From an uncultured Eubacteriales bacterium (lineage in GTDB: Bacteria > Acidobacteriota > Aminicenantia > Aminicenantales > CALLJL01): a stretch of 64,000 nucleotides of DNA. The translations under genes and the position numbers were made by a program. Under the pieces are notes generated by a model. The model was not told the DNA's origin. It searched no databases and was given only the letters and a program-made list of their open reading frames with translations. The stretch covers positions 3,051 to 67,050 of the forward strand of contig CAZVIN010000007.1 in assembly GCA_964627255.1 (NCBI GenBank), in the 5' to 3' direction. Below are positions 3,252 through 62,466 of this stretch, in pieces (position 1 is the stretch's first letter; every line of letters starts with the position of its first letter).

Positions 3252-5801
3252 ATGTTAGAAGCTTACTGGCAAAAAGAAAAAGAACGTCAAGCTTTAGGTA
3301 TACCCGCTCCGCCCTTAACCCCGGAAGAGACGGCAGAGGTTTGCGCGGCGCTGGAGAATCCACCCCCTGGTCTGGAGGAGAAGCTTTTAGACCTGCTCAG
3401 AAAAAGAGTAGCTCCTGGTGTTGACCCGGCGGCTAAGGTTAAAGCTGACTGGCTGGCCAAAATAGCCCGTGGACAAAAAAAGTCGCCGTTAATTTCACCG
3501 GTGGAAGCAGTTGAGCTCTTAGGGACGATGCTGGGGGGCTATAATGTGGAGCCACTGGTTAGTTTCTTAGACGAACCTTCCCTGGCCGCAGCTGCGGCGG
3601 CCGCCTTAAAGCGCCTTATCCTCGTTTATGGAGCCTTTCAGACTGTGGTCGAGAAGGCCAAGACAAATTCCTATGCTAAAGATGTTCTCGAGGCTTGGGC
3701 TAAAGGCGAATGGTTTTTATCGCGACCAGAAATACCAGAAAAGATAGAGCTTAAAGTTTTTAAGGTCGACGGCGAAATAAACACCGATGATTTTTCTCCG
3801 GCTAAGCATGCCTGGAGCCGGCCTGATATTCCGCTCCATGCCCTTTCCATGGGCGAGACCCGTTTTCCTGGCGGAATTCAAACCATCCGGCAATTTCGCC
3901 AGGAAGGATTCAAGGTAGCCTTTGTTGGTGACGTAGTCGGCACCGGCTCGAGTCGCAAATCAGCTTGCAATTCTCTGATGTGGCACATCGGCGAGGATAT
4001 ACCCTATGTTCCCAACAAAAGAAAAGGAGGAGTGGTCCTGGCTGGGCTCATCGCGCCGATTTTCTTTAACACCACCCAGGATTCAGGCGGACTACCGATT
4101 ATGACAGATGTCAGCGCTCTTAAAACCGGCGATATTATTATCTTGGACACTCGTCAGGGAACCATCGCTAATGATAAAGGCGAGGTTATGGCCAAGTTTG
4201 AATTTAAACCTCCGACCTTAAAGGACGAATTCCGGGCTGGCGGTCGTCTTAACCTGATTATTGGCCGCGATTTGACTAACCGAGCTCGCCGGGCCTTAAA
4301 CTGGGGAGAAGCCGACTTTTTCGTCAAGCTGGAGAACCCAAGACCAAAGGAAGGACAAGGGTTTACCTTAGCCCAAAAGATCGTTGGCCGGGCTTGCAGT
4401 CTGGAAGGAGTCCTGCCTGGGTCAGCTTGCGAGCCGAAGATGACCACTGTGGGTTCTCAGGACACTACTGGTCCGATGACGGCAGATGAGCTTAAGGAGT
4501 TAGCCTGTCTCGAATTTCAAACTGAATTTTTTATGCAGTCCTTTTGCCACACAGCAGCTTATCCTAAAGCCGCTGATGTTAAAATGCATCGTAGCCTACC
4601 GCAATTTATCATTTCTCGCGGCGGGGTGGCCTTAAAGCCAGGTGACGGGGTAATTCATTCCTGGTTGAATCGTTTCCTCCTTCCGGACACGGTGGGAACA
4701 GGTGGTGATTCGCATACCCGGTTTCCCTTGGGACTTAGTTTTCCCGCTGGCTCCGGCTTAGTTGCCTTTGCAGGAGCGCTTGGGTTCATGCCTCTTGATA
4801 TGCCGGAATCAGTTCTGGTCAAATTCAGCGGTCGGCTCCAACCAGGGATTACCTTGCGGGACATAGTTAATGCCATTCCTTATTTTGCTATCAACCAAGG
4901 TTTGCTGACTGTGGCCAAAAAGGGGAAAAAGAACATTTTTAATGGCCGAATAATCGAGATGGAGGGACTGGAAGAGTTAACCGTGGAGCAGGCTTACGAG
5001 TTGACCAATGCCACGGCCGAGAGGTCGGCAGCGGGCGGAGTGATCGCTCTTAAAGAAGAAAATGTTGCCCGCTACCTTAGGAGTAATATTGCTTTGATGG
5101 AGAAGATGATTGAAGAAGGCTATCAATCAGCGGACACCCTGCGCCGCCGCCTCGAAGCCTGCCAAGCGTGGCTCGAAAACCCTTCTTTGTTGCGCCGTGA
5201 TGAGACCGCAGAATATGCGGCCGTAATCGAAATAAATCTTGAGGAAATCGTCGAACCGATTCTGGCTTGCCCTAACGACCCTGACGACGTCCGCCTATTA
5301 AGCGAAGTCTCTGGTGATAAAATTGATGAGGTTTTTATCGGCTCTTGCATGACTAACATCGGACATTTTCGGGCTGTAGCCAGAATTTTCGAAGGTGCCC
5401 CCTATTTAGCTACCCGAGTCTGGCTAACCCCACCAACCAAAATGGATGCGGCCCAGTTGATGCGGGAAGGTTTGTATTCTGTGTTTGCTTCGGTCGGCGC
5501 TCGAACGGAGGTCCCCGGCTGTTCTTTGTGCATGGGAAACCAGGCTCGGGTTAGGCCACAGGCCACTGTTTTTTCTACCTCCACCCGAAATTTTGATGAC
5601 CGGATGGGTTACGGAGCCAGAGTTTATCTTGGTTCAGCGGAGCTCGCCGCGGTCTGTGCTCTGAAAGGAGCCATCCCGACAACTGAAGAATACCTGGCAA
5701 TAATGAAGGAAAAAGTTTTGCCCCAAGCTGACAAGATTTATCGCTATCTTCAGTTTGATGAGATAAAGGAAGGGACGCTTCATTATTCTGGTCAATATTG
5801 A
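3252..5801 (+). CDS. acnB: Aconitate hydratase B (bifunctional aconitase 2 / 2-methylisocitrate dehydratase)
   Basis: 849 aa. The N-terminus (MLEAYWQ...NPPPGLEEKLLDLL...GVDPAAKVKA...SPLISPVEAVELLGTMLGGYN) is nearly collinear with E. coli AcnB. The C-terminal aconitase domain has Cys ligands. AAAGGAG RBS. Confidence 0.92.
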   Translation: MLEAYWQKEKERQALGIPAPPLTPEETAEVCAALENPPPGLEEKLLDLLRKRVAPGVDPAAKVKADWLAKIARGQKKSPLISPVEAVELLGTMLGGYNVEPLVSFLDEPSLAAAAAAALKRLILVYGAFQTVVEKAKTNSYAKDVLEAWAKGEWFLSRPEIPEKIELKVFKVDGEINTDDFSPAKHAWSRPDIPLHALSMGETRFPGGIQTIRQFRQEGFKVAFVGDVVGTGSSRKSACNSLMWHIGEDIPYVPNKRKGGVVLAGLIAPIFFNTTQDSGGLPIMTDVSALKTGDIIILDTRQGTIANDKGEVMAKFEFKPPTLKDEFRAGGRLNLIIGRDLTNRARRALNWGEADFFVKLENPRPKEGQGFTLAQKIVGRACSLEGVLPGSACEPKMTTVGSQDTTGPMTADELKELACLEFQTEFFMQSFCHTAAYPKAADVKMHRSLPQFIISRGGVALKPGDGVIHSWLNRFLLPDTVGTGGDSHTRFPLGLSFPAGSGLVAFAGALGFMPLDMPESVLVKFSGRLQPGITLRDIVNAIPYFAINQGLLTVAKKGKKNIFNGRIIEMEGLEELTVEQAYELTNATAERSAAGGVIALKEENVARYLRSNIALMEKMIEEGYQSADTLRRRLEACQAWLENPSLLRRDETAEYAAVIEINLEEIVEPILACPNDPDDVRLLSEVSGDKIDEVFIGSCMTNIGHFRAVARIFEGAPYLATRVWLTPPTKMDAAQLMREGLYSVFASVGARTEVPGCSLCMGNQARVRPQATVFSTSTRNFDDRMGYGARVYLGSAELAAVCALKGAIPTTEEYLAIMKEKVLPQADKIYRYLQFDEIKEGTLHYSGQY

Positions 5802-11128: not shown

Positions 11129-11640
11129 TCTTTGGAAGACAAACCTAATTGGCGTTGTAATCTGCGGCGCAAGAGCTGGCGCTTAAGAGGCGAGAGACGG
11201 TCCAAAAACAGTCGGCCTTCTAAATGGTCCAGTTCATGACAAAAAACACGAGCCAGAAGGTCAGAGGCTTCTATTTTTATCTCCTGGCCCTCCAGGCTAA
11301 GACCTCGGACCAGGATGCGAGCCGGCCGCCTTACCTTTTCTCTTATTTCGGGAACAGAAAGGCAGCCTTCCTCTTCGATGGACTCGCCTTCTGCTTCTAA
11401 AATTTCTGGGTTTACCATGATAATTAACTCATCGGCTTTTTCTCCGACAGACAAGTCGACCGTAATCAGCCTTTGGCTCATGCCAAGCTGGGGCGCGGCT
11501 AAACCAATCCCCGGCGCCGCATGCATTGTCTCCACCATATCTTGAGCTAAAGATAAAATTTCTTCATTAATATCTTGAATGGGCTCGGCGGCGCGATGAA
11601 GCACAGGGTGGCCATACTGGACTATTTTTCTCAGAGCCAT
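11125..11640 (-). CDS. def: Peptide deformylase
   Basis: 171 aa with the GIGLAAPQLG, EGCLS and HELDHL motifs. Confidence 0.92.
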   Translation of the reverse strand: MALRKIVQYGHPVLHRAAEPIQDINEEILSLAQDMVETMHAAPGIGLAAPQLGMSQRLITVDLSVGEKADELIIMVNPEILEAEGESIEEEGCLSVPEIREKVRRPARILVRGLSLEGQEIKIEASDLLARVFCHELDHLEGRLFLDRLSPLKRQLLRRRLQRQLGLSSKE

Positions 11641-11826
11641 GTTTTTATTTTACCAGATAGAATTTATTGGTTCAAAGTGGGGTTTCTCAGGCGAAGTAGC
11701 CAACCTCTTGCTGAAATAGTCTGGCGTGGAGCCGCCTCTAAACTCGAGAAGAAATAAAGAAGAAACAAGATATTAACAAGCACCTAATTTTTTAGAACCT
11801 TCCTCATCAGCTTTAAGGCGAATTTC

Positions 11827-13233
11827 TTAGGGTGAATTTATTTTAGGAAGGATAACCAGGCCGATATTTTCTTTTTCATTATATTCAATGCTAACGCCAA
11901 AAGGCTCTGATAGCCTCTTCAGGTCGCTAATAATTTTTTGGCCCAAGATGGGCTCAGCCAAAAGAGGTCTTCCCCTCACCCAACGTGGCTGGCCAAAACC
12001 AAGGGAGACGGGAATTAACTTTATTTCTCTTAGTTCTTTTTCTCGCCATTTCAAACAGGCGACAACTGATTCCCAGTATTCAGGCTGGCTGGGAAAACCC
12101 CGCCGGTCCGAATCATAGCGAGCTTCATTAAAATCAGCAACATGTTTATCTTCACCCAAACGATAGGGCTCATAATTCTCCTGGGGCAAACGAAGCGGCG
12201 TTTCATTCTGAAAAATAAAATTTCCTAAACTATAAAAAATTGGCTTACCTTGGTAAATTTCTATCCCTTTTAAAATGTGGGGACCATGATTGACAACCAG
12301 GGAAGCGCCAGCGTCAATAGCCGCGTGCGCAAAATCAACGAGGAAGGAGGGGGAAGAAAATCTATCCTTTCCCTGTTCATGGCTATGGACAGAAACGATG
12401 ACCAGGTCAGCCAAAGCGCTGGCGTTGCGAATGATCGCGGTTATCTCTGCCAGGTCGCCAGGGTTAAGAGATGTTCTTATTTCCGCTGAATCGCCTTTCA
12501 CGATTCGCTGACGGAGAAAACTCAACTGGGAACTTTCCAAAGGCGGATTCAGCCCCCATTGCTGCAAGATAGTTCGCAGCCCTTCCAATTGCTCCGCCGT
12601 AACCACATAGGTTGAGGTAAAGCGAAGGGGGTTGAGGCCGGGTCGAGGCGGGATATCGTCCCGGGATTTACTGGCCCGAGCATGGTCGGGAAAAGTCGAG
12701 GCACAGGAAATCAAAGCCACCCGCGCTTTGGCTGTTTCCAGAAAACGCGCCTCCCTGGCTTCAGTTAGACTGCGGCCAACACCAGCCTGAACGAGACCTG
12801 CCGCCTCAACATACTTGGTAGTTAGCTCCATGCCTATAACGCCAAAATCGCCGGCATGATTATTGGCCCGGGAAACAAGGTCAAAGCCCGCCCAAACTAA
12901 TTCCTTAGCGAGGCCCGGTTCAGCCCGCAGGTAGGTTCCGCCGCTTTCATGCATAGGATAGGCCTCGTAATCATGGAAGAGAATTTCCAGGTTAGTAAAG
13001 GCAATATCAGCCGAGCGAATGATTTCAATCAATTTAAGAAAATCAGGTTCAGAATAGACAGAAAGGCGACGGGTGATAATGGAATCGCCGGTAAGAGCCA
13101 CGGTGAAAGAGACGTCGGCTGGCTTCAGGCTGGGTTTCTCCGAAGCATTCGTTTTGGCCACAAGCAAAAGATTAAAGCTAATAAAAAGCAAAAACAGAAA
13201 CTTAAGGATGGCCAAAAAAATTCTTCTCCTCAA
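11827..13233 (-). CDS. CapA-family metallophosphoesterase (poly-gamma-glutamate synthesis protein family), secreted
   Basis: 468 aa with an N-terminal signal peptide and the CapA/PGA_cap domain pattern (VALTGDSI, NHAGDFG). Confidence 0.7.
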   Translation of the reverse strand: MRRRIFLAILKFLFLLFISFNLLLVAKTNASEKPSLKPADVSFTVALTGDSIITRRLSVYSEPDFLKLIEIIRSADIAFTNLEILFHDYEAYPMHESGGTYLRAEPGLAKELVWAGFDLVSRANNHAGDFGVIGMELTTKYVEAAGLVQAGVGRSLTEAREARFLETAKARVALISCASTFPDHARASKSRDDIPPRPGLNPLRFTSTYVVTAEQLEGLRTILQQWGLNPPLESSQLSFLRQRIVKGDSAEIRTSLNPGDLAEITAIIRNASALADLVIVSVHSHEQGKDRFSSPSFLVDFAHAAIDAGASLVVNHGPHILKGIEIYQGKPIFYSLGNFIFQNETPLRLPQENYEPYRLGEDKHVADFNEARYDSDRRGFPSQPEYWESVVACLKWREKELREIKLIPVSLGFGQPRWVRGRPLLAEPILGQKIISDLKRLSEPFGVSIEYNEKENIGLVILPKINSP

Positions 13234-13634
13234 GGCTACCTCCTTTTTAGGGGTTTTCTTGTTTATTTTATCTTAATTTTATTCTGACCCATTCTGGGCA
13301 TTTTAGCTTAATGCTCTCCAGGATACGATCATTTCTTTCTTTAATAAAGACCTGATAGTGTGCCCCCTTTTTTGCTGTTGCTGACCTAAATATAATCGGT
13401 TATGATGCCGTCGACGGGGCTTATCGGATAAGACTGAAATTAGAGGCAATTGAAAGGCACAGAGATTCATTAAGCAAGATAATTCATGAGGTATAGGAAT
13501 CACTTGCCACCTAACAGCCTTAAGTATTTAAAGCCATGCCATTAGGAAGGTGAAAAAGTTAAGTAATGAAAATTTATGTTGGCGTTACTGATAACGCTTG
13601 GTATAGCTTTTTGGCCGCAAGGATAAACTCGCTC

Positions 13635-42366: not shown

Positions 42367-43686
42367 TTAATGCGAATTAATGATTTCCCCGCGTAGGCTA
42401 TAAGGACCAAAAGAGGTAATCCTGACTTTCACCATTTTGTTCGTGACTTCCTCGGCTGAAGAGAAGTTCACTACCTGATAAGCTTCGTTACGTCCGGAAA
42501 AAAGCTGGGGTGTTTTTGAGCTGCGGCCAAGGCAAAGAACATCCATGACCTGACCGACTAAGCCTGAATTGAGCTCCAGCTGGATTTTTTTCTGGAGATC
42601 TTGCACCTCGATTAAACGGCGGCGTTTGACCTCGAAGGGAACATCATCGGGAAGTCGGGAGGCCGCGGTAAAAGGCCGAGGCGAATAACGAAAAGAAAAG
42701 ATATTAGTAAAACGGACTGCCTCCAAAAGGCTTAGAGTGGCCTCGAAGTCATTTTCTGTCTCCCCGGGAAAGCCGACGATGATGTCGGTGGAAAGGCTAA
42801 TTCCTGGTACCAACTCTCGGAGTAGAGCGATTTTCTCCAGGTATTCCTCGCGGCTGTATCCCCTTTTCATCCTCTGGAGGATTCGATTTGAGCCTGATTG
42901 TACGGGGAGATGAATCTGGCGACAAATATTCTTCTCCTTGGCCATAACGAGACCGACCTCCTTAGTTAGGTCCTTTGGATGGGAGGTGATAAAACGAATC
43001 CAACAGATATTTTTAATCAGGGAAATATTTTGGAGCAATTCCGCCAAAGTCCAGCCTGTTTCTTGGTCATAATAGCTTGTTATGCTTTGTCCCAACAATT
43101 GAATTTCCAGATAGCCTTTTAGAGCCAGCTCTTCCACCTCTTTGAGGATGGCCCGGGCTGGCCGGTATTTTTCTCGGCCACGGGCGAAGGGCACGATGCA
43201 ATAGGAACAGAAATTGTTACAACCTTCCATCGCAGGAACATAAGCACTGACTGTACTTTCTCTGAGAATAAGAGGGGAAGGGTGTTCTCGCCATTGACTG
43301 GTCCAAGCCGTTAAGCTGGCTCTTTCGTCTCGATTAATAAGCTGAAGCAGCTCGGGATAATTATCGGGGCCAAGAATATAATCAATCACTGGGTGACCCT
43401 GAAGGAGCTCTTTAGAGTGAAGCTGGGCGACACAACCGACAACTGCCACCTTGAACGGCCTGTTTTTCTTAGTCTGTTTGAGCCTACCCAAGAGCGAAAA
43501 GAATTTTTCCACTGATTTGGCTCGGACGGCGCAGGTGTTGATAATAACCAGGTCGCTTTCTTCAACTGTCGCCACCTTTTGCCATCCTTGGCTCGCTAAT
43601 AATCCAGCAAGATGTTCAGAGTCGCTTTCGTTCATTTGACAACCGAAGGTATGGACAAAAAAGCGACGGGGAAGAGAAGTGACCAT
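42367..43686 (-). CDS. miaB: tRNA (N6-isopentenyl-A37) methylthiotransferase MiaB-family
   Basis: 439 aa. N-terminal MTTase domain FFVHTFGCQMNESDSE, radical SAM CNNFCSYC cluster, and a C-terminal TRAM domain. Confidence 0.88.
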   Translation of the reverse strand: MVTSLPRRFFVHTFGCQMNESDSEHLAGLLASQGWQKVATVEESDLVIINTCAVRAKSVEKFFSLLGRLKQTKKNRPFKVAVVGCVAQLHSKELLQGHPVIDYILGPDNYPELLQLINRDERASLTAWTSQWREHPSPLILRESTVSAYVPAMEGCNNFCSYCIVPFARGREKYRPARAILKEVEELALKGYLEIQLLGQSITSYYDQETGWTLAELLQNISLIKNICWIRFITSHPKDLTKEVGLVMAKEKNICRQIHLPVQSGSNRILQRMKRGYSREEYLEKIALLRELVPGISLSTDIIVGFPGETENDFEATLSLLEAVRFTNIFSFRYSPRPFTAASRLPDDVPFEVKRRRLIEVQDLQKKIQLELNSGLVGQVMDVLCLGRSSKTPQLFSGRNEAYQVVNFSSAEEVTNKMVKVRITSFGPYSLRGEIINSH

Positions 43687-44120
43687 TAGAGAAGCTCTTC
43701 TAAAATGTCTATGGAGGAACGAATGAGCTGCGGACAGACGGTCTGAAAAAGCCCTTTAGAATTTGCCAACTCATGTCCGCCCGGGCTTGATAAGTCAATG
43801 CCCAGGAGCTGCCAGCAAAGGAGGGAACCGTTTTTGGCTTGAAAAAGAGAAAAAAATTCTCGCGTCAGAGCATAAGTTTTTTCCCTTGCCGCGTCGTCTT
43901 CGGGCTTCACTTTGCCGTGTTTAAGACCTAAAACCAGCATAGCTCCCGTTACTGCGCCACAAGTCTGACCTGTCCTGGCCATTCCGCCCCCAAAAGCTTG
44001 AGCCAGACGAGAGGCCGATTCTTCGGAAAGGCCCAATTCGCAGGCAAAAGCCAGCAGAACCGATTGAGCGCAATTAAACCCAGTCTGAAAATGTGTCAAA
44101 GCTCTTTCCTGTCGTGTCAT
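43686..44120 (-). CDS. C_GCAxxG_C_C family (putative redox-active) protein
   Basis: 144 aa with a FNCAQSV ... TCGAVTGA ... CWQL ... VCPQL cysteine pattern matching the family. Confidence 0.6.
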   Translation of the reverse strand: MTRQERALTHFQTGFNCAQSVLLAFACELGLSEESASRLAQAFGGGMARTGQTCGAVTGAMLVLGLKHGKVKPEDDAAREKTYALTREFFSLFQAKNGSLLCWQLLGIDLSSPGGHELANSKGLFQTVCPQLIRSSIDILEELL

Positions 44121-44235
44121 TTCTTCCTCTGGTTAATGCCTAGTATATTTAATTTTTTTAATGTTCACTTTCTCTTAAATCACTTAAAAACGAGCCCAAT
44201 AAATAATCAATCGCCAATCAACGAAATAAACAAAG

Positions 44236-44358
<123 letters not shown>

Positions 44359-44529
44359 GCTTCCCTTGGGGCTCCTTGATTATTATATCAGCATCTCAAT
44401 TTGATTGCCTACTTATCTATTTGTTTGCTAACTTATTACTTTTCTTACTTGCTTACCTGATTTCTTATTAAAATCCTTAGTAGCTTATCTATTCCCCTTT
44501 TTATATTTACGATGATATAGAGCGATCCA

Positions 44530-46221
44530 TTAGCTATTGGCTTCTTCCCCCAAGTTATGGCGAAGCATTTCCCTGGCGTTCTGAAGAGAAGCAGGCGTGA
44601 TATGACTGCCTGAAAGTAGCCGGGCCATCTCTTTAACCCTTTCTTCAAAAGCAAGTTTCTTGACCGAGGTAAAGGTTCTGGCCCCTTCTACCCGCTTATC
44701 AATCCGAAAGTGATGACTGGCAAAAGAAGCTATTTGGGGTAAATGCGTGATGCAAATAACCTGATGCCGACGGGCTAAGGAACGCAATTTTTGGGCAATA
44801 AAATCAGCCGTCTTGCCGCCTATTCCAGAATCAATTTCGTCAAAAATTAGGGTTTTCCCGGCGGAGGCCTCTTTGCCGATGGCCTTAAGCGCCAGCATAA
44901 TTCGCGATAGTTCCCCGCCTGAAGCAATCCTGCGCAGCGGCCTTAATTCTTCTCCTGGGTTAGGACTAATTAAGAACTCAACCTCGTCCCAACCGCTTTC
45001 TTTAACTTGGTCGATACCATCTAACGAGCGGGGATGACTTGACACTTTAACCTCAAGGCGAGCCTGTTTCATCCCCAAGAGGGCGATTTCTTTTTCTAAA
45101 TGACGTTTGAGTTCCTTAGCTCCCTGCTGCCTCCGCTCAGAAAGAATTTGCGCTTTGTGCCGGTATTCTTCAAAAGTAGCCTCAATATCCCGGTTGAGGT
45201 CAATTAGTCTCTCTTCTGAACTGAGCAATTCTTCTCTTTCTTTTTCGCATTTTTGGAGATAATCTAAGATGGCTTGTATATCTCCGCCATATTTACGTTT
45301 AAGCTTCTCGAGTTGACTCAGCCTCTCTTCTATTTTTTCTAAACGGTCTGGGGCCGTTTCTTGTTGTTCGCGAAAGCGAAGCAGCCCCTCCACTGTTTCC
45401 CGGACCAAAATAGTTAAAGGCTCGAGGCTGCGGGCTAATTCTTGAAAATTAGAATCGAACTGACCTAATTCCTCCAGATAAGAGGAAAAACGTTGGAGTG
45501 ATGAGAGCAGAGAATTGTCTCCATAATAAGCCGTTTCCAAAGCTTTTTCACAAAGCAAGGCGATCTTGGTGGCATTTTTGAGTCGATGCCGCTCATTGAG
45601 CAACTCTTCCCACTCTCCAGGCCGCAAGTTAGCTCGCCTAATTTCTTCCACTTGGTAGGCCAAAAAATCAAGCCTTTTTTCTCTTTCTCTTTGCCTCTCT
45701 TCGATGGCCAATTTTTCTTCCCGCAGCGTTCTTAACCGGTGGCTAAGAGCAGCGACTTCCTGGCGAAGGGCCCATGCTTCTATGTAGTCATCGAGATAAT
45801 TTAAATGATTTTCGAGATAAAGAAGAAAGATGTGGTCGTTCTGGCCGTAAATATCCACCAGCTCGTCGGCAATTTCTTTAAGACGGCGGACGGGGACAAG
45901 GATCCCGTTGATGTAAGCCCGGCCAGCTCCGTCGGCCGTAATTGACCGCTGAAGAAAGATAGTCCCATCCTCAAGATAGGGCGCAACTGGCGAATCCGGG
46001 GAAACATTTTTCGCCTGGAAGACAGCCTCGACGGAAGCTTCTTTTTTCCCTGTCCTGATGACTTCGCTGGAAGCTCGCTCTCCCAGAAGAAGTTTAATTC
46101 CGTCAATGATAATCGATTTACCAGCTCCAGTTTCACCGGTAAGAATGGTAAACCCTGGAGATAACGAGAGCTCCAGGTCTTCAATCGTGGCTAAATTGCG
46201 GATGCGAAGCGAAACAATCAT
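44530..46221 (-). CDS. recN: DNA repair protein RecN
   Basis: 563 aa SMC-like protein with the N-terminal Walker A motif GETGAGKS, a central coiled coil and a C-terminal signature/Walker B region. Confidence 0.92.
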   Translation of the reverse strand: MIVSLRIRNLATIEDLELSLSPGFTILTGETGAGKSIIIDGIKLLLGERASSEVIRTGKKEASVEAVFQAKNVSPDSPVAPYLEDGTIFLQRSITADGAGRAYINGILVPVRRLKEIADELVDIYGQNDHIFLLYLENHLNYLDDYIEAWALRQEVAALSHRLRTLREEKLAIEERQREREKRLDFLAYQVEEIRRANLRPGEWEELLNERHRLKNATKIALLCEKALETAYYGDNSLLSSLQRFSSYLEELGQFDSNFQELARSLEPLTILVRETVEGLLRFREQQETAPDRLEKIEERLSQLEKLKRKYGGDIQAILDYLQKCEKEREELLSSEERLIDLNRDIEATFEEYRHKAQILSERRQQGAKELKRHLEKEIALLGMKQARLEVKVSSHPRSLDGIDQVKESGWDEVEFLISPNPGEELRPLRRIASGGELSRIMLALKAIGKEASAGKTLIFDEIDSGIGGKTADFIAQKLRSLARRHQVICITHLPQIASFASHHFRIDKRVEGARTFTSVKKLAFEERVKEMARLLSGSHITPASLQNAREMLRHNLGEEANS

Positions 46222-53000: not shown

Positions 53001-55022
53001 TTATTCGGGTAAAGAAGAAGCTAAGAACTGGGTGAGCTCAAGAGCCGCTAACCCTTCCTTTCCCAGGTCTTTGAGACCATCACGCACCATGGTTAGGCAG
53101 AAAGGACAGGTGGTGATTACCGCCTCAGCTTGAGTGGTGGCTATTTCGTCAGCCCGGATACGGTTAATCCGTTGGCCTAATTTTTCTTCAGTCCACATCA
53201 AACCGCCGCCCGCGCCGCAGCAGAAGCCGTGCTCTTGTCGCCGCGGCAACTCTTTTAGCTTCACTCCTGGGATAGAGCGAAGTAAGTAACGAGGTTCAGC
53301 AATCAAGTGGTGGTGGCGAGCATAATAACAGGAGTCATGTAACGTTATCGGCGTTTCCCTCGTTGTTCCCTTAAAAGAGATTTTGCCTTCGTCGACCAAA
53401 AAAGTTAAAAGTTCTAAATGCGAAACTACCTGAATTCGGCTCAGAAATTCTCTATCGCTGGCGGACATATCGGTAAAAATCGAGAGCAGACGAGGGTACT
53501 CATATTTGAGCGTGTGGTAGCCATGGGGACAGAAGACGAGAATTTTTTTAACTCGATATTGACTGAAAAGCTCGAGATTCTGACGGGCCAGAGCCTGAAA
53601 AAGATATTCGTTGCCTAAGCGACGGGCGGCGTCGCCACAACATTTTTCTTCTTCGCCCAAGATGGCAAAATTCACCCCCGCTTGTCGGAGCAGACGAACC
53701 ATGGCTCTTGAAATTGCCTGACCCAGTTCATCAAAAGAACCAGCGCAGCCAACAAAAAATAGCCACTCCGCCTCAGGATTTTCAGCCAGGCGAGGGACTT
53801 TTTCTTTTTCGGCCCATTCCCCGCGGCGGGAAAAACCAATGCCCCAGGGATTAGCGTTCGTTTCGAGGTGGCGAAAGAAACTGTTGAGTTCAGTCGGGAA
53901 CCGGCTTTCCATCAGAACCTGAGCCTGTCTTAAACCAAAAATCTTGGTCAAATGTTCAATTTCTACCGGGCAAACATGCATGCAAGCCCCACAAGTTGTG
54001 CAGGTCCAAAGCTCGTCGGGCTTTATGACTTCCGGGACTATGGCGGGCAATTTTTCTCGATTTTTCTTATGAATCGGAAAATAAGAGCTGAGCAAATGAC
54101 GTTCGAGGTTATAAATAATCATTTTGGGCGAGAGAGGCTTGCCAGAGAGGAAAGCAGGACAGACATCCTGACATCGGCCGCATTCGATGCAAGCAAAAGC
54201 ATCGAGACAATCTTTCCATGTCAAGTCGAGAGCCTTTTCTATCCCATAGACCTCAGTCTTTTCTAAGTTTATAGGTTCTATTTCACCCGGGCTTGTTTCG
54301 CGGTGAAAAAGCAAGTTAAAGGGACCAGCAAACATGTGAAAATACTTGGAGTGGGGGACATAGGCGATAAAAGCGTAGACAATGACAAGATGAAGCCACC
54401 AGGAAAGATGCAGAAGGGAAGAAGGTTGGTTGGCTGTCGCTCCAGCTCCCAAAAAGAAGCGACTGAGAAAAGGGCCGAGGAAGGAAAAACGAAGTTGTTC
54501 AGGCTGGTGGAGATATTTGCAGGCCTCAAAAAAAAGATAGCTCAGGGTTGTGGCCAGAAGAAAAAAATAGATAATGGCCGAGTCCAGAGCAGAAGTCCTC
54601 AGGGCCCGAGGTCGAAAAAGAAAGCGGCGAAGAGCTAAATAAATTGCTGCCGTAAGAACCACCAGGGCCATAAAATCGATCAGGCCGGAGACGATATCTT
54701 CTGCTAAGCCGTGACCGAAGAGGGAAAAACCGCTGAGAAAACCTTCCAGAGTATGGTTAACCGTCATGGTATCAAAGGTCAGTGCGGCATAAAAGAGGCC
54801 GGCGTGAATTATCCCTGTTCCTAAGCGTTCATTTTTCAAAGTACAGCGCTGGAGAAAAACCAGGCTGAGCACGCGCCAAAAACGACGGCCAAGATTATTT
54901 GTTCTCTCCACCGTTTTGGCGCTGCGGATAATTTGATAGCGGCGATAAACAGGATGGAAGAAGGCGCCGACGGTGATTATAACTAGGAGAGATAGAATAA
55001 TTTTTTCGATAATTGAAAGCAT
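53001..55022 (-). CDS. HdrE/HdrD-like (DsrMK-like) membrane-bound Fe-S oxidoreductase
   Basis: 673 aa. N-terminal approximately 250 aa form a polytopic membrane domain with conserved His (NarI/HdrE-like). Two 4Fe-4S ferredoxin motifs (CIECGRCQDVCP, CTTCGACMHVCP) and two CCG domains (CCGDAARR, CCGAGGG). Confidence 0.8.
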   Translation of the reverse strand: MLSIIEKIILSLLVIITVGAFFHPVYRRYQIIRSAKTVERTNNLGRRFWRVLSLVFLQRCTLKNERLGTGIIHAGLFYAALTFDTMTVNHTLEGFLSGFSLFGHGLAEDIVSGLIDFMALVVLTAAIYLALRRFLFRPRALRTSALDSAIIYFFLLATTLSYLFFEACKYLHQPEQLRFSFLGPFLSRFFLGAGATANQPSSLLHLSWWLHLVIVYAFIAYVPHSKYFHMFAGPFNLLFHRETSPGEIEPINLEKTEVYGIEKALDLTWKDCLDAFACIECGRCQDVCPAFLSGKPLSPKMIIYNLERHLLSSYFPIHKKNREKLPAIVPEVIKPDELWTCTTCGACMHVCPVEIEHLTKIFGLRQAQVLMESRFPTELNSFFRHLETNANPWGIGFSRRGEWAEKEKVPRLAENPEAEWLFFVGCAGSFDELGQAISRAMVRLLRQAGVNFAILGEEEKCCGDAARRLGNEYLFQALARQNLELFSQYRVKKILVFCPHGYHTLKYEYPRLLSIFTDMSASDREFLSRIQVVSHLELLTFLVDEGKISFKGTTRETPITLHDSCYYARHHHLIAEPRYLLRSIPGVKLKELPRRQEHGFCCGAGGGLMWTEEKLGQRINRIRADEIATTQAEAVITTCPFCLTMVRDGLKDLGKEGLAALELTQFLASSLPE

Positions 55023-55033
55023 CCGCCCTCCTC

Positions 55034-55897
55034 TCAGAAGGGGACAGCAATTCCCCAGATAATTTTATGGAATGATTGTTGGTTACCGAGCTGACTCATA
55101 GCTATGTCTTTCCAGAAACCACCTCCTAAGGAAAGCTCTAACCAGCGAGCCACCTTGAGCCGCAAGATCAAGTCGAGGAGAAGGCTCTGGCCCCGGGCCA
55201 AAAGAACAGCGCTCTGGAAAATAGCCTGGAAACTCACGATAGCTTCAGGGGTTAAAGCTACACCCAACCGGGCTCCATACTCTTGTTTGAGCTTTTCTCC
55301 CGAAAAGTCGAGATAGGCTCGCTGGTTGGTGTGGTGAAAAAACCAGATAAAGGGCTCAAATAAAATGCGGTCAGAGGAAAAGCTCAAGCCAAACCCAAAG
55401 TAGTTGCGGTTTAAATAATAAGGTTTTCCATGCTGATAACTTACATGGTCGGAGTCATGGTTGCTGTCGTGGCCGATGATCAGAAGAAAATTCCGGCCGA
55501 TAAATTGCCGAAGCGAAAAATGCCAGTCAAACTTAGTGCGATTATGGCCGTCATCATGGGTAATAAGCTGAGCTAAAAGGGAGGTGCTTCTTGTCAAGTC
55601 CAGATAATTTTGGAAGCCAAAGTTCCAGCGGTCCTCGGGGCCGCTGAGGTCGTTAAAGCTCGGAAAATTGGCCGGCAAAAGAAGCGAGGCAAAAAATTCG
55701 CCTCTGGGGTCAAGCCGGCCGGTTTCAAGTAAGGATATCTTTTCCTGCTGCGGTCGATAAATAAAAATGGGCTGGGCCAGAATATGGGCAGGGATAAAAA
55801 ATAACATAAGCAATAGCCATGTGAGAGGGATAGTGAAGTTAATTTTGAAATTATTGCAATCTAACCTGGAGCCTATTTTTATCATCTTTTCATTCAT
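55034..55897 (-). CDS. His-rich outer membrane beta-barrel protein (hypothetical)
   Basis: Signal peptide and His clusters (HDDGHNRTKFDWHF, GHDSNHDSDHVSYQHG, FFHHTN). C-terminal ...GIAVPF. The 5' end lies within the (AATG)n tract, so the true start may be the downstream Met (MIKIGS). Confidence 0.6.
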   Translation of the reverse strand: MNEKMIKIGSRLDCNNFKINFTIPLTWLLLMLFFIPAHILAQPIFIYRPQQEKISLLETGRLDPRGEFFASLLLPANFPSFNDLSGPEDRWNFGFQNYLDLTRSTSLLAQLITHDDGHNRTKFDWHFSLRQFIGRNFLLIIGHDSNHDSDHVSYQHGKPYYLNRNYFGFGLSFSSDRILFEPFIWFFHHTNQRAYLDFSGEKLKQEYGARLGVALTPEAIVSFQAIFQSAVLLARGQSLLLDLILRLKVARWLELSLGGGFWKDIAMSQLGNQQSFHKIIWGIAVPF

Positions 55898-55946
55898 TCA
55901 TTCATTCATTCATTCATTCATTCATTCCACCCACCCACCAACCAAC
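55891..55946. repeat. Compound tetranucleotide microsatellite: (CATT)9-(CCAC)3-(CAAC)2 (plus strand)
   Basis: Read directly. On the minus strand it reads (AATG)9 and contains the annotated ATG of the His-rich OMP gene. Lies between the TonB-dependent receptor stop and the OMP start. Confidence 0.95.
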
Positions 55947-56161
55947 CGTTAATTCATTCAACTATCCATCCACCTACCTACGAACCTAATTAATTTCCCA
56001 ACTAGCTACTAATTTTTTTCTTTCCTCTCTTAACTTAATGCTATTACTACCACCACTTCTACTTTTGCTAATGCTACCATTACACCCATTAATGCTACCA
56101 TAACTAATACTTCTTGCTTTTAGTTATTTCATCCCACCTCGCTCATTTAGTTTCGCTTATA

Positions 56162-58981
56162 CTAAAATTCAATCTTTAATCCAAGGCGGAAAACCCGCGG
56201 CGACTGGATTTCTGTGGCGAAACGCAAGGGAAATTGCGGCGACGTCCATTCGTTTTCTTCTGTTGCCAAGTGTTGGTTAAAAATATTATATCCTTCGATA
56301 AAAAGCGAGCTTCTTGTGCCTAAAAGGGACCAAGTCTTTTCCAGCCGGAAATCAACGGTCAGGTTGAATTCATAGCGGGCAATGCCCCGTGGGAAAGCTT
56401 GAATGATCACCGGACCCTGTCTTAGGCCGGTGACAATTATTTTCCGGCTAAAGGGCTGGCCGTCGTAGTATTTGAAAATAAAACCAGCCCTAAAATCGGC
56501 TGGAAGAAAAAGGCTAAAACCTAACCGGGCAGTATAGGCTCGGTCAAACCTCAGTCTCCCTCGGGCGTTAACGAGAGAATTGGGGTCATCATAGAGCCAG
56601 CCTATTACGGCCTCGTCATTTTCCCATTCGGTGTTACCTGGACTCGTAGTGCCGAAAGCTTCAGTCGCGGTAAAAGAAAAAAAGAAAATGTGCTTGGTGA
56701 ATCGGCGCAAGACAGTAAGGTCGAGACCACGATAGCGGGAGCTGCGCTCGGTCAAGTTGGGATTGCTCAGCTCAAAAAAATCCCGGCCCAATGCCTGCGG
56801 AAGTCGGTTATAAATGATAAAGCTCAGGTCATCGTGAGTTCCCCAGATGCGGTCATCGCCGCTATCATTGAGCGTGAACGTTTCAAAGGCCGATTCCGGC
56901 ACGCCGATATTTTCCGTTTCCACCAAGTTACGGGTTGTCCGGTGAAAGCCACTTAGCGAAAGATAGAATTCTCGGCTCAGCCTGTAGATAAAACTAACGG
57001 CATATTCGGTCATGACCGGACGGCGAAGGTTAGAATCCAGCCGAGAAAAAAAAGGTCCTTCTCGCCTTAGTAAAGGACCGAGTTCTCCTTCGTCAAATTT
57101 ATAATTTAAATTGCGGTCAAGCCAAGCATAAATCAAGGCTCCTTCGGCTGCGGCGTTTCCCCATCGCAGATAATTAAGAGGAAGACAAAAAGCTGACTGG
57201 CCGAAAAAGAACTTCAGCGAGCCCTTTTTCCCGTCGCTGAAGGGAACAGTTAGGCTGGCCCGAGGCAAAAGGCTGAGCCAGTCAAGGCGCGCCGCCGAGG
57301 TGCTGGTAAACCCGCCCCAACTCCTCTTTGGAGAAGGCGGTTGACTCCAACCTCGAGTCAGAATCAACTTGGCGCCCATGCCAAGAAGAAAGTGGCGCGA
57401 AATTTTCCAACTATCTTCTATATAAAGGCTGATATCAAGGGAGTTGTCTAATTCCCTGGAAACAGGCGCAAAGAACGCTACCAGGGCCGGCTGGCCTTCG
57501 AGAAACAGCAGATGGGTTGAGCCTGGAATCTGAAGCTCTGAGGAATAAAAGCGTCGAGAAACTTCAAGCCCGAAGCTGGCCAAATGGATTGAACCTGACG
57601 GGAAGTTTATCAGCCAATTACCGTTGACTTGAAAATTCAGATGGCCTTGCGTCTCGTCTCCATATCTTAGCGGCGCTTGCCAGACAACTGGGCGAAAGAG
57701 CTCTCGGCAGGGAATTAAAGAAGGACTGACGTAGGGGTCAGATGATATTTTTTGATAGGCTAAACTTAAGCCAGAATGAAAGGAGAGTTGAGCTGAAGGG
57801 AGGGATTGCCAGAATAATTGCGCGACATGAAAATTACGTTGGGCTCTGGTTGTGGCTTCTGGGGCCATTTTTCGTCGCGCCCCCGCTTCTGCCTCGCTGG
57901 CTTGCTGACCTGTCCAAAAAAAACTCAGCTCCCCCCGGGAAGTAGCTTGGTCAAGCCTGATTAGCCCAGAAAGAAGGCGACTTTGATTATGGCCAATATA
58001 ATCAGCTATGTGGCGGCTTAAATCCTGAGAAAAAAAACTGAGATAGAAGCGACGATTTTCAGAAGCCAGAGGACCGGAGAGCCAGAGTCTAAGCTTTCGG
58101 TCGTGAAGAAAAGTATGGGCATCAGTCAGCCCCTCTTTTTCTAAGGCCGGGGTGATGTTGGAGGTTGTCAACCCTGGTTCAATTAGCGTATAGCTTGTCC
58201 CACCCTGAAAGCGGCTGGCACCTCTTTTTGTGGCCATCTCGATCCTTCCTCCAGGGGAAGCGGCTGAAGCCGGATGAAGACTGTTTCGATGACGAATTGC
58301 CTCCACCGTCTGGAGGTCCGGAAGAAAAAGAGGCGTTCCGCCAAAATAGGGCTCGGTAACATTAAACCCGTTAAGGCGAAATTCATTCTGCGTCCAGGAG
58401 GTGGCGCCACGGGCGCTAAATAATGCTGGAGAATCAGCCCAGAGACCTCCAGAGTCAATGCGGTTAGTGGTAGCCGATAAATCCTGGTTTTCGATTATCG
58501 ACCAAAGATTATCGGCTGAGGGAAGGAGCGAAAGCTGGAAGCCGTTAACAACGGTTTGGGCCCCAATATCAGCAAAGTCGTATTTTTCCACTAAGGGTGG
58601 GCGAGTGGAATCAGAAAATTTGAATTCAAGCTGCAGAAACTGAGCTGGTTCAAGCTTTATTTCCTCTTTCCATTCTCTTTTGTTTGCCAGCTTTAGTGTG
58701 AGATTGTAATTCCCTGGGCTTAATCCAAGCCATATTAAATGACCAGCAGAATCAGGACAGCCAACCAACGGCGAGGTCAAGAAAGAAGCTTCGAGCCAGA
58801 CCGTTACTTCCGAGGAGGGCAAGGTTAAGCCCAAAAATTTAAGGTGAAGTGACGAGTTATTCTGAGCCGCCGCTGAAGAGATTAAGCAGAGAACCGATAA
58901 ATGGACGCAAAACCACGCTTGACGAAAAGGCTTTTTCGGACGGGAAAGGCGTCCGTTTGAATTTTTCTTCATATTAAGCAC
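56162..58981 (-). CDS. TonB-dependent receptor with N-terminal carboxypeptidase-regulatory-like domain
   Basis: 939 aa with a signal peptide, a CarbopepD_reg-like N-terminal domain, a plug domain, and a long beta-barrel ending in ...GLKIEF (terminal Phe). Confidence 0.8.
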   Translation of the reverse strand: MLNMKKNSNGRLSRPKKPFRQAWFCVHLSVLCLISSAAAQNNSSLHLKFLGLTLPSSEVTVWLEASFLTSPLVGCPDSAGHLIWLGLSPGNYNLTLKLANKREWKEEIKLEPAQFLQLEFKFSDSTRPPLVEKYDFADIGAQTVVNGFQLSLLPSADNLWSIIENQDLSATTNRIDSGGLWADSPALFSARGATSWTQNEFRLNGFNVTEPYFGGTPLFLPDLQTVEAIRHRNSLHPASAASPGGRIEMATKRGASRFQGGTSYTLIEPGLTTSNITPALEKEGLTDAHTFLHDRKLRLWLSGPLASENRRFYLSFFSQDLSRHIADYIGHNQSRLLSGLIRLDQATSRGELSFFWTGQQASEAEAGARRKMAPEATTRAQRNFHVAQLFWQSLPSAQLSFHSGLSLAYQKISSDPYVSPSLIPCRELFRPVVWQAPLRYGDETQGHLNFQVNGNWLINFPSGSIHLASFGLEVSRRFYSSELQIPGSTHLLFLEGQPALVAFFAPVSRELDNSLDISLYIEDSWKISRHFLLGMGAKLILTRGWSQPPSPKRSWGGFTSTSAARLDWLSLLPRASLTVPFSDGKKGSLKFFFGQSAFCLPLNYLRWGNAAAEGALIYAWLDRNLNYKFDEGELGPLLRREGPFFSRLDSNLRRPVMTEYAVSFIYRLSREFYLSLSGFHRTTRNLVETENIGVPESAFETFTLNDSGDDRIWGTHDDLSFIIYNRLPQALGRDFFELSNPNLTERSSRYRGLDLTVLRRFTKHIFFFSFTATEAFGTTSPGNTEWENDEAVIGWLYDDPNSLVNARGRLRFDRAYTARLGFSLFLPADFRAGFIFKYYDGQPFSRKIIVTGLRQGPVIIQAFPRGIARYEFNLTVDFRLEKTWSLLGTRSSLFIEGYNIFNQHLATEENEWTSPQFPLRFATEIQSPRVFRLGLKIEF

Positions 58982-60651: not shown

Positions 60652-62190
60652 TTAAAGTTTTTCGCGGCGCTTCGTTTTTATTAAATTGTGCACACTTTTC
60701 TCTCTCATTAGCCTTTGGATATCAGCAATTTCTTTCGGCGCGCGGGCGGACAGAATCTCATTTCCGTTTTCAGTGATTAGAATATCATCTTCTATGCGAA
60801 CTCCAAAGCCGGCATAGCGAGCATAGACTGGGGCTACTTTTTTCTGGAAAGCCTCAATTTCAGCTTCCGGCACTTTCCCTTTGAGGGATTCAAGATAGGT
60901 CTCAACCCTTTTTTCAGGGAAGTAGAGGCCTGGTTCCATAGTCATGACCATGCCCGGCTTCATGACAACTTTATCTAAACGCGGTCCGTGCCAACTCCAG
61001 GCATCATGGACATCAAGGCCAATGCCGTGACCAAAGCCGTGTTGAATATAAAGACGTCTCTGCCAGGGACTATTAACATCCGTTACCAGACCCAGCTTTT
61101 CCAGGCCAGCCAGCAGAATTTTTTCCACCTCATCCTGGACGGCTTTAAAGGTGACGCCGGCGACAAGGCGGCGGCAACCTTCTTTTTGGGCTTGCAGCAC
61201 AAGTTCATAAATTTCTCGCTGCTCCTTGGTGAACCGGCCGCTGGCGGGAATGGTGCGGCTGACATCTGACGTGTATCCCCTGATATAAGCCCCAACATCA
61301 AAGACAATCATGTCACGGCCCATTAATTCCCGAGAAGTGGCTCCAAAGTGAATGTTGGTTGAATTGGGACCTGAGGCTACTTGAAGGAAGGATTCCTTAG
61401 TTTCTTGTCGATTAAAAATATATTTGATGATGGCGGCCAGGTCTATTTCCCGCATTCCAGCTTCAGCCGCTCGGTAGGCCTCGTTAAGAGCTTCGGTCGT
61501 TAAATCAACGGCCTTACGCAAAGCTTGAATTTCATCATCGTCCTTGGTCAGACGCATCTCCAGTAAAAGGGGGTCTAAATTAAAAAGGGCTTCGGCTTGG
61601 GCCAAAGGTTGGACTAAACCGAAGGTTCTGGAGAGGAAATCTAAATCGGAAAAGGGGAGGAAAAGCCGGCAGGGCTGATTAGCTGAGGACCGCAGAAAGG
61701 GTGAGAACTCTTCCATAGGCTTGATTATTATCGGCGGGCCTTCTTTGGTTTGAGTTTGACCGGAGGCTTTTTCAAGTAACCTTGATTCTCTGTCTTCTTC
61801 TAAAATTTCTGATGGTCCCGCCAGAGCTGAAGCCGCTCTTGGTCTTGGGGGTTGGGGCCGAAAAAGAATGGCTCTCGGAACTTCTGCTCCTTCTATAACC
61901 AGCACCGCTTCGGGTTCGTGTAGTCCTGTAAGGTAAAAGAAGTTGAGGTTTTCCCTTAGACCCTGGCGGCTCATAAACTGCGAGGGAATTATGACCAGGC
62001 TATTGGGGTGTCTCTCTATTAGTCTGGCCCGGCGGGAAGCATAAAGAGGTGAATCACCTATTTCCCGCGATGGGGTGAGCTGTTCCAGTTGTCGTTTTTC
62101 TCCAAGTTCCTCTGACGATGAAGAGTTTAAAATGCTAAGCGTAAGGATAGAAAATATTATTAATAAAATTGTCTTTTTATATGGAAGCAT
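60652..62190 (-). CDS. M24 family Xaa-Pro aminopeptidase, secreted
   Basis: 512 aa with a signal peptide, an AMP_N-like N-domain carrying an insertion, and a C-terminal pita-bread metal-ligand pattern (D..D..HGFGHGIGLDVHD..E..E). AGGAGG RBS. Confidence 0.82.
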   Translation of the reverse strand: MLPYKKTILLIIFSILTLSILNSSSSEELGEKRQLEQLTPSREIGDSPLYASRRARLIERHPNSLVIIPSQFMSRQGLRENLNFFYLTGLHEPEAVLVIEGAEVPRAILFRPQPPRPRAASALAGPSEILEEDRESRLLEKASGQTQTKEGPPIIIKPMEEFSPFLRSSANQPCRLFLPFSDLDFLSRTFGLVQPLAQAEALFNLDPLLLEMRLTKDDDEIQALRKAVDLTTEALNEAYRAAEAGMREIDLAAIIKYIFNRQETKESFLQVASGPNSTNIHFGATSRELMGRDMIVFDVGAYIRGYTSDVSRTIPASGRFTKEQREIYELVLQAQKEGCRRLVAGVTFKAVQDEVEKILLAGLEKLGLVTDVNSPWQRRLYIQHGFGHGIGLDVHDAWSWHGPRLDKVVMKPGMVMTMEPGLYFPEKRVETYLESLKGKVPEAEIEAFQKKVAPVYARYAGFGVRIEDDILITENGNEILSARAPKEIADIQRLMREKSVHNLIKTKRREKL

Positions 62191-62440
62191 CTTAACAACC
62201 TCCTTTTCCTCTAAATTTATAACCGCGAAGTTTCGATTGACGGAAATATTTTAACTTCATCACTATATTTTTACTTTTCTCCATTATTATCTCAAAAATA
62301 ATTTTTTTCTATTATTTTTTCCTCTTTTCGGGCCAAGCTGTGGGATAAGCTGGCGGTAGCGGAAGTTATTATTAAAGGTTTCAGCTTTTGGCTTCTCGCA
62401 TCAGCCTCCGAGCGAACCTTCAAAGGCCGAGGATGTCTCA

Positions 62441-62466
62441 ATAATAGGTGACAATAATAGGTGACA
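62441..62466. repeat. Tandem direct repeat, 2 copies of 13 bp (ATAATAGGTGACA)
   Basis: Read directly in the 590-bp intergenic region. Candidate operator or regulatory element. Confidence 0.8.

Follow-up and report, generated by a model that had tools for sequence, protein, structure and literature searches.

How does a bacterial spacer come to lack nearly all of one base? This question is raised by positions 55947-56161 of a stretch of 64,000 nucleotides (nt) from an uncultured bacterium of the Aminicenantes, in the following called the window; the tract lies between the genes of a large outer-membrane-like protein (OMP) and of a small outer-membrane beta-barrel. On the plus strand 12 of the 215 nt are G (5.6 %), next to 26 % A, 29 % C and 40 % T, where a sequence-only reading of the window had counted about 13. 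The spacer from the stop codon of the upstream gene to the start at 55897 chosen by the finder of open reading frames (ORFs) covers 55898-56161 and has 12 G in 264 nt (4.5 %). For 27 intergenic gaps of at least 50 nt in the window the G share is mostly 12-27 %; under a binomial model, a count of at most 12 G in 215 nt has a probability of 1.7e-9 with the intergenic G content of 0.20 and of 9e-14 with the 24.7 % G of the whole window. A 200-nt sliding scan for less than 8 % of any base revealed only two places in the 64 kb, 44094-44367 (locus 1) and 55824-56198 (locus 2), both of them G-poor on the plus strand. The strong shortage of one base, the degenerate short motifs and the polarity common to both loci, all pointed out in the sequence-only reading, were recovered. 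Its assignment of both neighbouring genes to the minus strand (56162-58981 and 55034-55885, or 55897 with the alternative start) was correct as well, therefore the reverse complement is the relevant reading of the spacer. On this sense strand the spacer is C-poor and measures 264 nt to the ORF-finder start at 55897 or 276 nt to the conserved ATG at 55885. Probably, the tract is simple sequence that replication slippage has generated in this lineage: a compound tetranucleotide microsatellite with a gene-proximal end that still slips, plus its mutated debris.

The anatomy and the periodicity of the tract support this explanation (Table 1). The 100 nt next to the start codon form a compound tetranucleotide microsatellite, (GTAG)2..(GGTT)2(GGTG)3(GAAT)9-10. 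Its last block was detected by TRF on the plus strand as (TTCA)9.8 at 55889-55927, that is 9.8 copies with 100 % matches, and GAAAAG stands between the (GAAT) block and the ATG at 55885. Over 55947-56161 the autocorrelation at lag 4 reaches z = 3.1, the part 55990-56161 follows a period of 3/9/27 and not of 4, and in the OMP-proximal part the autocorrelation peaks are at lags 3, 9 and 27. Direct repeats of two families, D3 and D4, recur in this part at spacings of 54 and 33 nt. Compared with the properties of a compound simple sequence repeat (SSR) with decayed flanks, perfect head-to-tail copies, related blocks in one register and periodicity of the flanks were all found, and so were copy-number polymorphism, fast turnover and absence from more distant relatives. 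As TGA occurs in each of the three frames of (GAAT)n and the 3' junction with the start codon is fixed, a change in copy number cannot shift the reading frame of the gene.

Table 1. Coordinates of the spacer segments, the neighbouring genes and the second G-poor locus in the window
Feature	Position	Strand	Remarks
OMP-proximal 132 nt	56030..56161	minus	C-poor; simple sequence of period 3/9/27; three degenerate TAATGCTAYYA.. copies
Hydrophobic ORF of 23 codons, MVALMGVMVALAKVEVVVVIALS	56030..56101	minus	probably a by-product of the period-3 repeat
Purine-rich segment GAGAGGAAAGAAAAAAATTAGTAGCTAGTTGGGAAATTAATTAGG	55987..56029	minus	38-nt length difference to the sister lineage
Decayed compound period-4 tract	55928..55986	minus	(GTAG)2 GTGG ATGG ATAG TTGA ATGA ATTA .. 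(GGTT)2(GGTG)3
Live microsatellite (GAAT)9-10	55889..55927	minus (TTCA on plus)	ends 3 nt before the ATG at 55885
Upstream gene, 939-amino-acid outer-membrane-like protein	56162..58981	minus	stop codon TAG at 56164-56162
Downstream gene, 283-amino-acid protein with signal peptide, 12-stranded outer-membrane beta-barrel	55034..55885	minus	AlphaFold2 model
Locus-1 spacer, 409 nt	44121..44529	minus	between recN (44530-46221) and the C_GCAxxG_C_C gene (43686-44120)

The tract is real and its repetitive end is actively changing in length. By the source names of homologues the organism belongs to Candidatus Aminicenantes. The same organism was present at 99.9-100 % identity in five short-read metagenome assemblies (ENA ERZ27245602; JGI 3300017449, 3300010284 and 3300022548; a Logan assembly), and their contigs end within the arrays at both loci, those of ERZ27245602 inside the (GAAT) array. 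A contig of the same organism from another metagenome (L008) spans locus 2 with 11 GAAT units versus 9 perfect ones in the window and is otherwise identical. At locus 1, copy numbers differ among the five assemblies, with (GACA)8 versus 15-16 units and variable counts of (GATA) and (GATT). An artefact of the assembly was ruled out, since independent contigs cross the tract (L008, and L018 of a sister lineage within a contig of 284 kb) and the unique part is identical or homologous in them.

The expansion is limited to the organism of the window and to a sister lineage of about 89 % identity. In seven relatives with 61-75 % protein identity (L003, L016, L017, L020-L022, L029) the gap between the OMP and the barrel gene consists of 40-90 nt of ordinary sequence, with 66-82 % purines and 5-19 % C on the sense strand, and both loci lack an expansion in relatives whose proteins are 61-76 % identical. 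The sister lineage (L018, L015/L030; OMP 88.6 % identical in amino acids, about 89 % in nucleotides) is the only other one with an expansion. Its spacer in L018 has 466 nt and reads (GGTA)8(GACA)4(GATA)8 .. (GTTA)8(GATT)7(GGTT)6, ending in GGATGAATGAG-ATG; the first three of these blocks occupy the region orthologous to 55928..55986 of the window. In L015, from another sample, (GTTA)10(GTTG)7 stands at the same ATG and the contig breaks there. The (GAAT)n array of the window is matched in the sister lineage by the two-unit seed ATGAATGA only. Thus the position of the array has been kept between both lineages, while the units were almost wholly replaced. The remainder of the spacer has diverged at a nearly neutral rate: the OMP-proximal 132 nt align with L018 without gaps at 84 % identity and a second block of 62 nt at 79 %, as compared to 74-81 % identity at the four-fold degenerate sites of three flanking genes. 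Identities at or slightly above this neutral benchmark argue against a strong constraint on the spacer. An insertion or deletion of polypurine sequence separates the two lineages at 55987..56029, and a brief resemblance of the GAGAGGAAAGAAAAAAATTAGTAGCTAGTTGGGAAATTAATTAGG segment to the leader GAGAGGTTAAAGAAAAG of L016 was not significant. A duplicated 5' end of a gene and the ancestral leader were rejected as sources of the distal spacer, as local alignments were no better than those with shuffled sequences (z up to 1.3).

The same alignment bears on the missing base. Eleven of the 34 differences involve C, where about 37 % are expected under uniform substitution and 48 % under a model derived from the four-fold sites (one-sided p = 0.048); the C content of these sites is itself 36 % and probably reflects codon bias. 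Avoidance of C is therefore weak at most, and the simplest reading is a tract that was nearly C-free when it formed and has been slowly randomising since. An origin by slippage would proceed as follows. The ancestral ribosome-binding leader would already have been purine-rich and C-poor on the sense strand. Replication slippage would have amplified proto-repeats in it, ATGAATGA to (GAAT)n and GGTAAGTAAC to (GTAA)n, and point mutations would then have spread as new units, each differing in one base. An intercistronic leader of 40-90 nt would in this way have been inflated to 264 nt (276 nt to the conserved ATG), and to 466 nt in the sister lineage. The product would be a sequence of nearly three letters with the polarity of the downstream gene, and the depletion of one base would be inherited, through C-poor repeat units seeded by a purine-rich leader, rather than selected. 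As both gene sets lie on the minus strand, this polarity would also account for the G-poverty of both loci on the plus strand. The tract is probably transcribed within the OMP/beta-barrel operon: the ancestral gaps are short, and a scan of the locus-2 spacer found no terminator. Nor did this spacer contain a sigma-70-like promoter, a type which may not be that of this phylum.

Locus 1 is part of the spacer downstream of recN and precedes the genes of the C_GCAxxG_C_C protein and of a MiaB-like methylthiotransferase. Its live array, (GACA)8(GATA)~13(GATT)8, occupies 44236-44357 and was scored by TRF as a period-4 array of 30 copies at 44237-44356; a decayed tract of the (GTAA/GCAA) type fills 44358-44529, with autocorrelation z-scores of 2-4.5 at lags 4-24. 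The sequence-only reading had likened locus 2 to 44358-44529 in polarity and style. This needs a correction, as the depletion there is only mild (20 G in 172 nt, 11.6 %, p = 0.003), and the strong depletion of locus 1 resides in the SSR array and the leader at 44094-44367. The spacers of the two loci share no more k-mers than shuffled sequences, and BLAST at word size 7 found only words of 7-9 nt. In the absence of alignable similarity and of a k-mer excess, the loci are not copies of one element; common to both are the process and the repertoire of units. The recurrence, which the sequence-only reading had singled out, is not a coincidence, although it does not reflect a shared element or a sequence relationship. 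Coincidence had been allowed for in case that neither a relationship between the spacers nor further instances were found: a relationship is indeed missing, but further instances exist, namely the orthologous loci of the sister lineage and looser purine-rich SSR tracts in L022 and L019. Beyond the window, neither 10 kb on its left nor 5 kb on its right contained another array, which leaves two loci in about 79 kb.

The history of locus 1 repeats that of locus 2. In the sister lineage (L030, RecN 94 % identical) the spacer has 485 nt with a live (GCAA)3(GTAA)~10 array where the window is degenerate, and further along (GGAA)3(GGAT)5(GGTT)4(GGCA)3(GGTA)3, a scaffold gap and (GACA)4(GATA)5(GTTT)4(GGTT)3. 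The relative L031, at 76 % identity, has an ordinary spacer of 126 nt with 19 % C that holds only GGTAAGTAAC, plausibly the seed of (GTAA)n. Proto-repeat, expansion, mutation of units and decay follow one another in the same course at both loci. The same unit blocks were observed in the same order at unrelated loci of the two lineages, (GGTA) .. (GACA)(GATA) .. (GATT)/(GTTT) .. (GGTT), in the window at 44236-44357, in L018 at 13075-13268 and in L030 at 11592-11844. This order could have arisen by parallel one-step mutational paths or by gene conversion between arrays 11.6 kb apart. Directly upstream of the locus-1 array, at 44382-44411 on the minus strand, a promoter-like TAGGCA-18-TATAAT with an upstream TG was noticed (10/12 matches); the number of such matches around locus 1 is within chance expectation. 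Should this promoter be active, transcripts of the C_GCAxxG_C_C and miaB-like genes would carry the entire array as their 5' leader.

In assembly ERZ27245602 foreign DNA of at least 3.8 kb splits the locus-1 array (L007 11558-15474 and L011 1-154, corresponding to 44236-44365 of the window). The insert contains an AbiEi-like gene, an AbiEii toxin gene, an ORF of 109 amino acids and an ADP-ribosylglycohydrolase gene, and the same GCA(CAGA)n(TAGA)n array borders it at either end. As two independent contigs both run through the array into sequence that the window lacks, a real insertion or a recombination between arrays is likelier than a chimera. No integrase was seen in the available part of the insert.

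This island within an array, the same style of two loci and the breaking of short-read contigs at both of them might suggest a copy or remnant of a dispersed element, such as a miniature inverted-repeat transposable element (MITE), a repeat like the repetitive extragenic palindromic (REP) type or the scar of a mobile element, or else an artefact of the assembly. Such an origin is extremely improbable. Beyond composition the two loci share no similarity, the tract has no inverted repeats, and further copies were absent from the DNA searched, roughly 79 kb of this genome and about 170 kb of its relatives; the artefact is contradicted by the independent contigs L008 and L018. A MITE- or REP-like dispersed repeat was rejected on these grounds, with neither k-mer nor BLAST similarity between the loci.

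A few tracts of related appearance were encountered in relatives. In L022, at 61 % identity, nuoA and a sulfatase gene are separated by a tract of about 430 nt (2769-3205) with (AAGGA)4 and (TGAA)7, which is purine-rich and nearly C-free on the sense strand of the sulfatase gene; a tract like it is also present in L020 (2894-3043). In L019, likewise at 61 % identity, purine-rich simple sequence with (GATT)3 follows the OMP stop codon at 3323-3480 in place of the usual short spacer; here the site may have undergone a small expansion of its own. A general rule of C-poor leaders in the Aminicenantes was rejected, as the other leaders of the window are of normal composition. Moreover, in about 235 kb from the organism and its relatives, the other windows in which a single base made up at most 5 % were mostly ordinary AT-rich promoter or leader regions. 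Among the side observations is the AT-rich, G-poor (6.7 %) leader of an M24 peptidase gene at 62151-62339, which adjoins a perfect tandem duplication of 13 nt (CAATAATAGGTGA x 2.2) at 62439-62466; the duplication is located in the long intergenic region from which the peptidase gene and a radical SAM gene diverge.

The OMP-proximal part of the spacer holds an ORF of 23 codons on the minus strand, located at 56101..56030 by the sequence-only reading and confirmed there, which had been taken as expected by chance in such sequence. This judgement is broadly upheld: the ORF is intact in the sister lineage, where L018 encodes MVAVIWVMVALVKVEVLVAIALI versus MVALMGVMVALAKVEVVVVIALS here, after 13 substitutions, but it also remains intact in 33 % of neutral simulations. 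A real hydrophobic membrane micro-protein of 23 residues, encoded between two outer-membrane genes, is very unlikely. Start, stop, length and frame have been kept in L018 despite 18 % nucleotide divergence, 5 of the 12 changed codons are synonymous, all replacements retain the hydrophobic character, and a period-3 signal is present. Hydropathy as high as observed was retained in only 0.7 % of the neutral simulations (p = 0.007), a test picked after the data had been seen. The intact frame itself is unremarkable by simulation (P = 0.33), however, and the excess of synonymous changes (at least 5 codon changes) is not significant (p = 0.12). A Shine-Dalgarno-like motif upstream of the ORF was not recognised in the sequence of either lineage, and all relatives outside these two lack the ORF. 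Three degenerate copies of a single DNA repeat make up the ORF, and a period-3 repeat without stop codons automatically yields both an open frame and hydrophobic codons with T at position 2.

Selection on the composition itself has also to be considered, either for an unstructured purine-rich leader that would aid ribosome loading or for two-tetrad G-quadruplexes formed by the (GGTT), (GGTG) and (GGTA) units. The sense-strand RNA has indeed no fold better than its shuffles (minimum free energy -32 kcal/mol for 276 nt, z = -1.0, centroid almost unpaired). The sense strand carries two-tetrad patterns of G2 runs, GGTTGGTTGGTGGG and GGTAGGTGGATGG, at 55934-55947 and 55966-55978, units with GG are found again at both loci of the sister lineage, and changes to C are marginally under-represented in the one model mentioned above. 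Selection of this kind is nevertheless highly improbable. Quadruplex motifs with G3 runs are absent from the whole window, the locus-1 array (GACA)(GATA)(GATT) of the window has no GG runs and does contain C, and the gain of C agrees with expectation in the uniform substitution model. The composition of other leaders in the window is ordinary, and leaders of 40-90 nt suffice in the relatives. A known structured RNA was rejected too, as the window gave no Rfam match at the gathering score, 55700-56400 searched with E up to 10 gave only chance-level matches (E > 1), and the sense-strand fold does not exceed the shuffles. The plus strand, with z = -2.4, reaches only -12.6 kcal/mol for 276 nt and is essentially unstructured.

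Whether the slipping end of the tract has acquired a function is a separate issue, compatible with an origin by slippage. The tract could act as a contingency locus, phase-variable or as a rheostat, in which slippage alters the length of the leader or the spacing of a promoter and thereby switches or tunes the expression of the barrel. By analogy with known systems this is possible though unlikely. A run of at least nine tetranucleotide units stops 3 nt short of the ATG of the gene for a predicted 12-stranded outer-membrane barrel, the GAAT copy number is polymorphic between populations, and an array is maintained at the same position in the sister lineage despite the full turnover of motifs. 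Control by upstream or 5'-untranslated-region (5'-UTR) SSRs has published precedents (PMC2791445, PMC12721329, PMC4081817). On the other hand, the tract is found neither inside an ORF nor at recognisable promoter elements, as is usual for contingency loci, but upstream of the ATG; with TGA in each frame of (GAAT)n a frame-shift switch is impossible, and with a fixed 3' junction the start context stays unaffected by the copy number. Sigma-70-like promoter hexamers do not flank the array, although with another promoter type in this phylum the array may affect spacing at a distance. Locus 2 precedes a predicted barrel, a gene type expected of contingency loci, but locus 1 precedes the housekeeping genes for C_GCAxxG_C_C and the MiaB-like methylthiotransferase, and length polymorphism is expected of any microsatellite, functional or not.

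The comparison with characterised loci is similarly divided. With those of Haemophilus influenzae and Neisseria the array shares the tetranucleotide tract of about 8-16 units at the 5' end of a gene for an outer-membrane or surface protein and the length polymorphism between populations. Classical Haemophilus units occur, rotated or complemented, among the arrays described here: (GATT) as CAAT, (GACA), and (GGTT) as CCAA. The (TAAA)n tract of nadA in Neisseria is a tetranucleotide contingency tract upstream of a promoter (PMC2791445). Unlike these loci, the tract described here lies neither in a reading frame nor between recognisable promoter elements, one of its two loci precedes housekeeping genes, an on/off logic is not derivable from the sequence, and the host is an uncultured environmental bacterium. 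With the rheostats, the (ATCTTTC)n repeat in the 5'-UTR of hmw1A of H. influenzae, which is processed by RNase III (PMC12721329), and the poly-T tract of sabA of H. pylori (PMC4081817), the array has in common that an upstream or transcribed repeat could by its length grade the expression of an outer-membrane protein and not switch it. In hmw1A the repeats and a G-rich arm form a long stable hairpin, however, whereas in the present tract there is no fold beyond the shuffles and inverted repeats are absent. Length variation may grade the expression of the downstream barrel gene, in analogy to these rheostats.

As a class, the tract resembles compound and imperfect microsatellites, with different 4-nt blocks in one register, neighbouring blocks often one base apart, rapid turnover of motifs and polymorphic copy number. 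A classification of compound SSRs is available (PMC4700210). The arrays differ from usual bacterial microsatellites in their length of 100-230 nt and in having up to six blocks, which is unusual for free-living bacteria. Live perfect runs beside degenerate periodic sequence and a base skew inherited from the unit belong to the same resemblance, which extends to cryptic simplicity, a concept of slippage followed by point mutation that reportedly goes back to Tautz and colleagues in 1986.

Several observations weigh against slippage as the full explanation. The shared order (GACA)(GATA)(GATT)/(GGTT) at unrelated loci is not obviously predicted by purely independent slippage. Changes to C were marginally fewer than predicted by one substitution model, and the neutral rate was estimated from 34 differences between two diverged lineages, with an identity of 84 % slightly above the four-fold benchmark, so weak constraint is possible. 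In the sister lineage the 23-codon ORF has stayed open and its product hydrophobic. Two short matches to ancestral leader sequence, at plausible positions, were not significant by shuffling. The frequency of arrays and their orientation refer to about 79 kb of this genome.

The upstream gene had been labelled a TonB-dependent receptor in the sequence-only reading, an assignment that found no support: the Pfam search of the 939-amino-acid protein gave no Plug or TonB_dep_Rec match, only OMP_b-brl_4 at 20.6 bits, under the cutoff of 30, and the NCBIfam search gave no match at all. Orthologues are located upstream of the barrel gene in L003, L016, L017, L018, L022 and L029. The downstream product would have 287 amino acids, were the in-frame ATG at 55897 inside the SSR the start; its 283-amino-acid form was modelled by AlphaFold2 at high confidence, with a pLDDT of 88 and 12 strands, and the nearest PDB folds are PcoB, OmpG, OMPLA and NanC. 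The barrel family is conserved in the Aminicenantes, and in relatives, too, the large OMP gene is followed by the small barrel gene, the gene of the DsrK/HdrD-like iron-sulfur membrane protein and the genes beyond it. This trio was observed across the Aminicenantes, in the window at 53001-58981 on the minus strand and in L016, L017, L018, L022 and L029. It comprises an outer-membrane-like protein of about 930 amino acids without a Pfam or NCBIfam family, the 12-stranded barrel with invariant motifs rich in His, Asp and Ser (GHDSNHDSD), and a membrane iron-sulfur protein of 670 amino acids with NarI-like, 4Fe-4S and CCG (DsrK/HdrD-like) domains. Two candidate frameshifts were noticed in relatives and are possibly pseudogenes or assembly errors: in L003 (12779-13662) the barrel orthologue is open only from 13087 (191 amino acids), with its N-terminal part readable upstream in another frame, and in L030 (5172-5847) two ORFs of 126 and 87 amino acids take the place of a single ribulose-phosphate 3-epimerase gene.

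The tract is a known kind of sequence, a compound microsatellite with decayed flanks and possibly a contingency-like tract, that is undescribed in this group; a literature search found no paper on tandem repeats or simple sequence in Aminicenantes. Since PMC4700210, citing Mrazek et al. 2007, names host-adapted species as the main source of reports on long SSRs, multi-block arrays of 100-230 nt come as a mild surprise in an environmental candidate phylum. For the annotation of the window the compositional anomaly is explained without a new element, and a microsatellite that expands from an already skewed leader can leave a short intergenic tract extremely depleted in one base. The arrays fragment the five short-read metagenome assemblies of the organism, and since they vary between samples they are usable as strain markers. 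A more far-reaching and distinctly unlikely proposal is that the arrays are hypermutable leader tracts which grade or switch barrel expression and serve, in addition, as homology patches for ectopic recombination and the integration of islands, a role suggested by the common succession of unit blocks in arrays of different loci. If this were true, the insert with AbiE and ADP-ribosylglycohydrolase genes between GCA(CAGA)n(TAGA)n arrays would be an example of island integration, and the biology of contingency loci would extend beyond host-adapted pathogens. The presence of such arrays beside an outer-membrane protein gene of an environmental bacterium raises two possibilities: expression tuning by slippage may be more widespread, or this lineage may have an altered repeat-stability phenotype.

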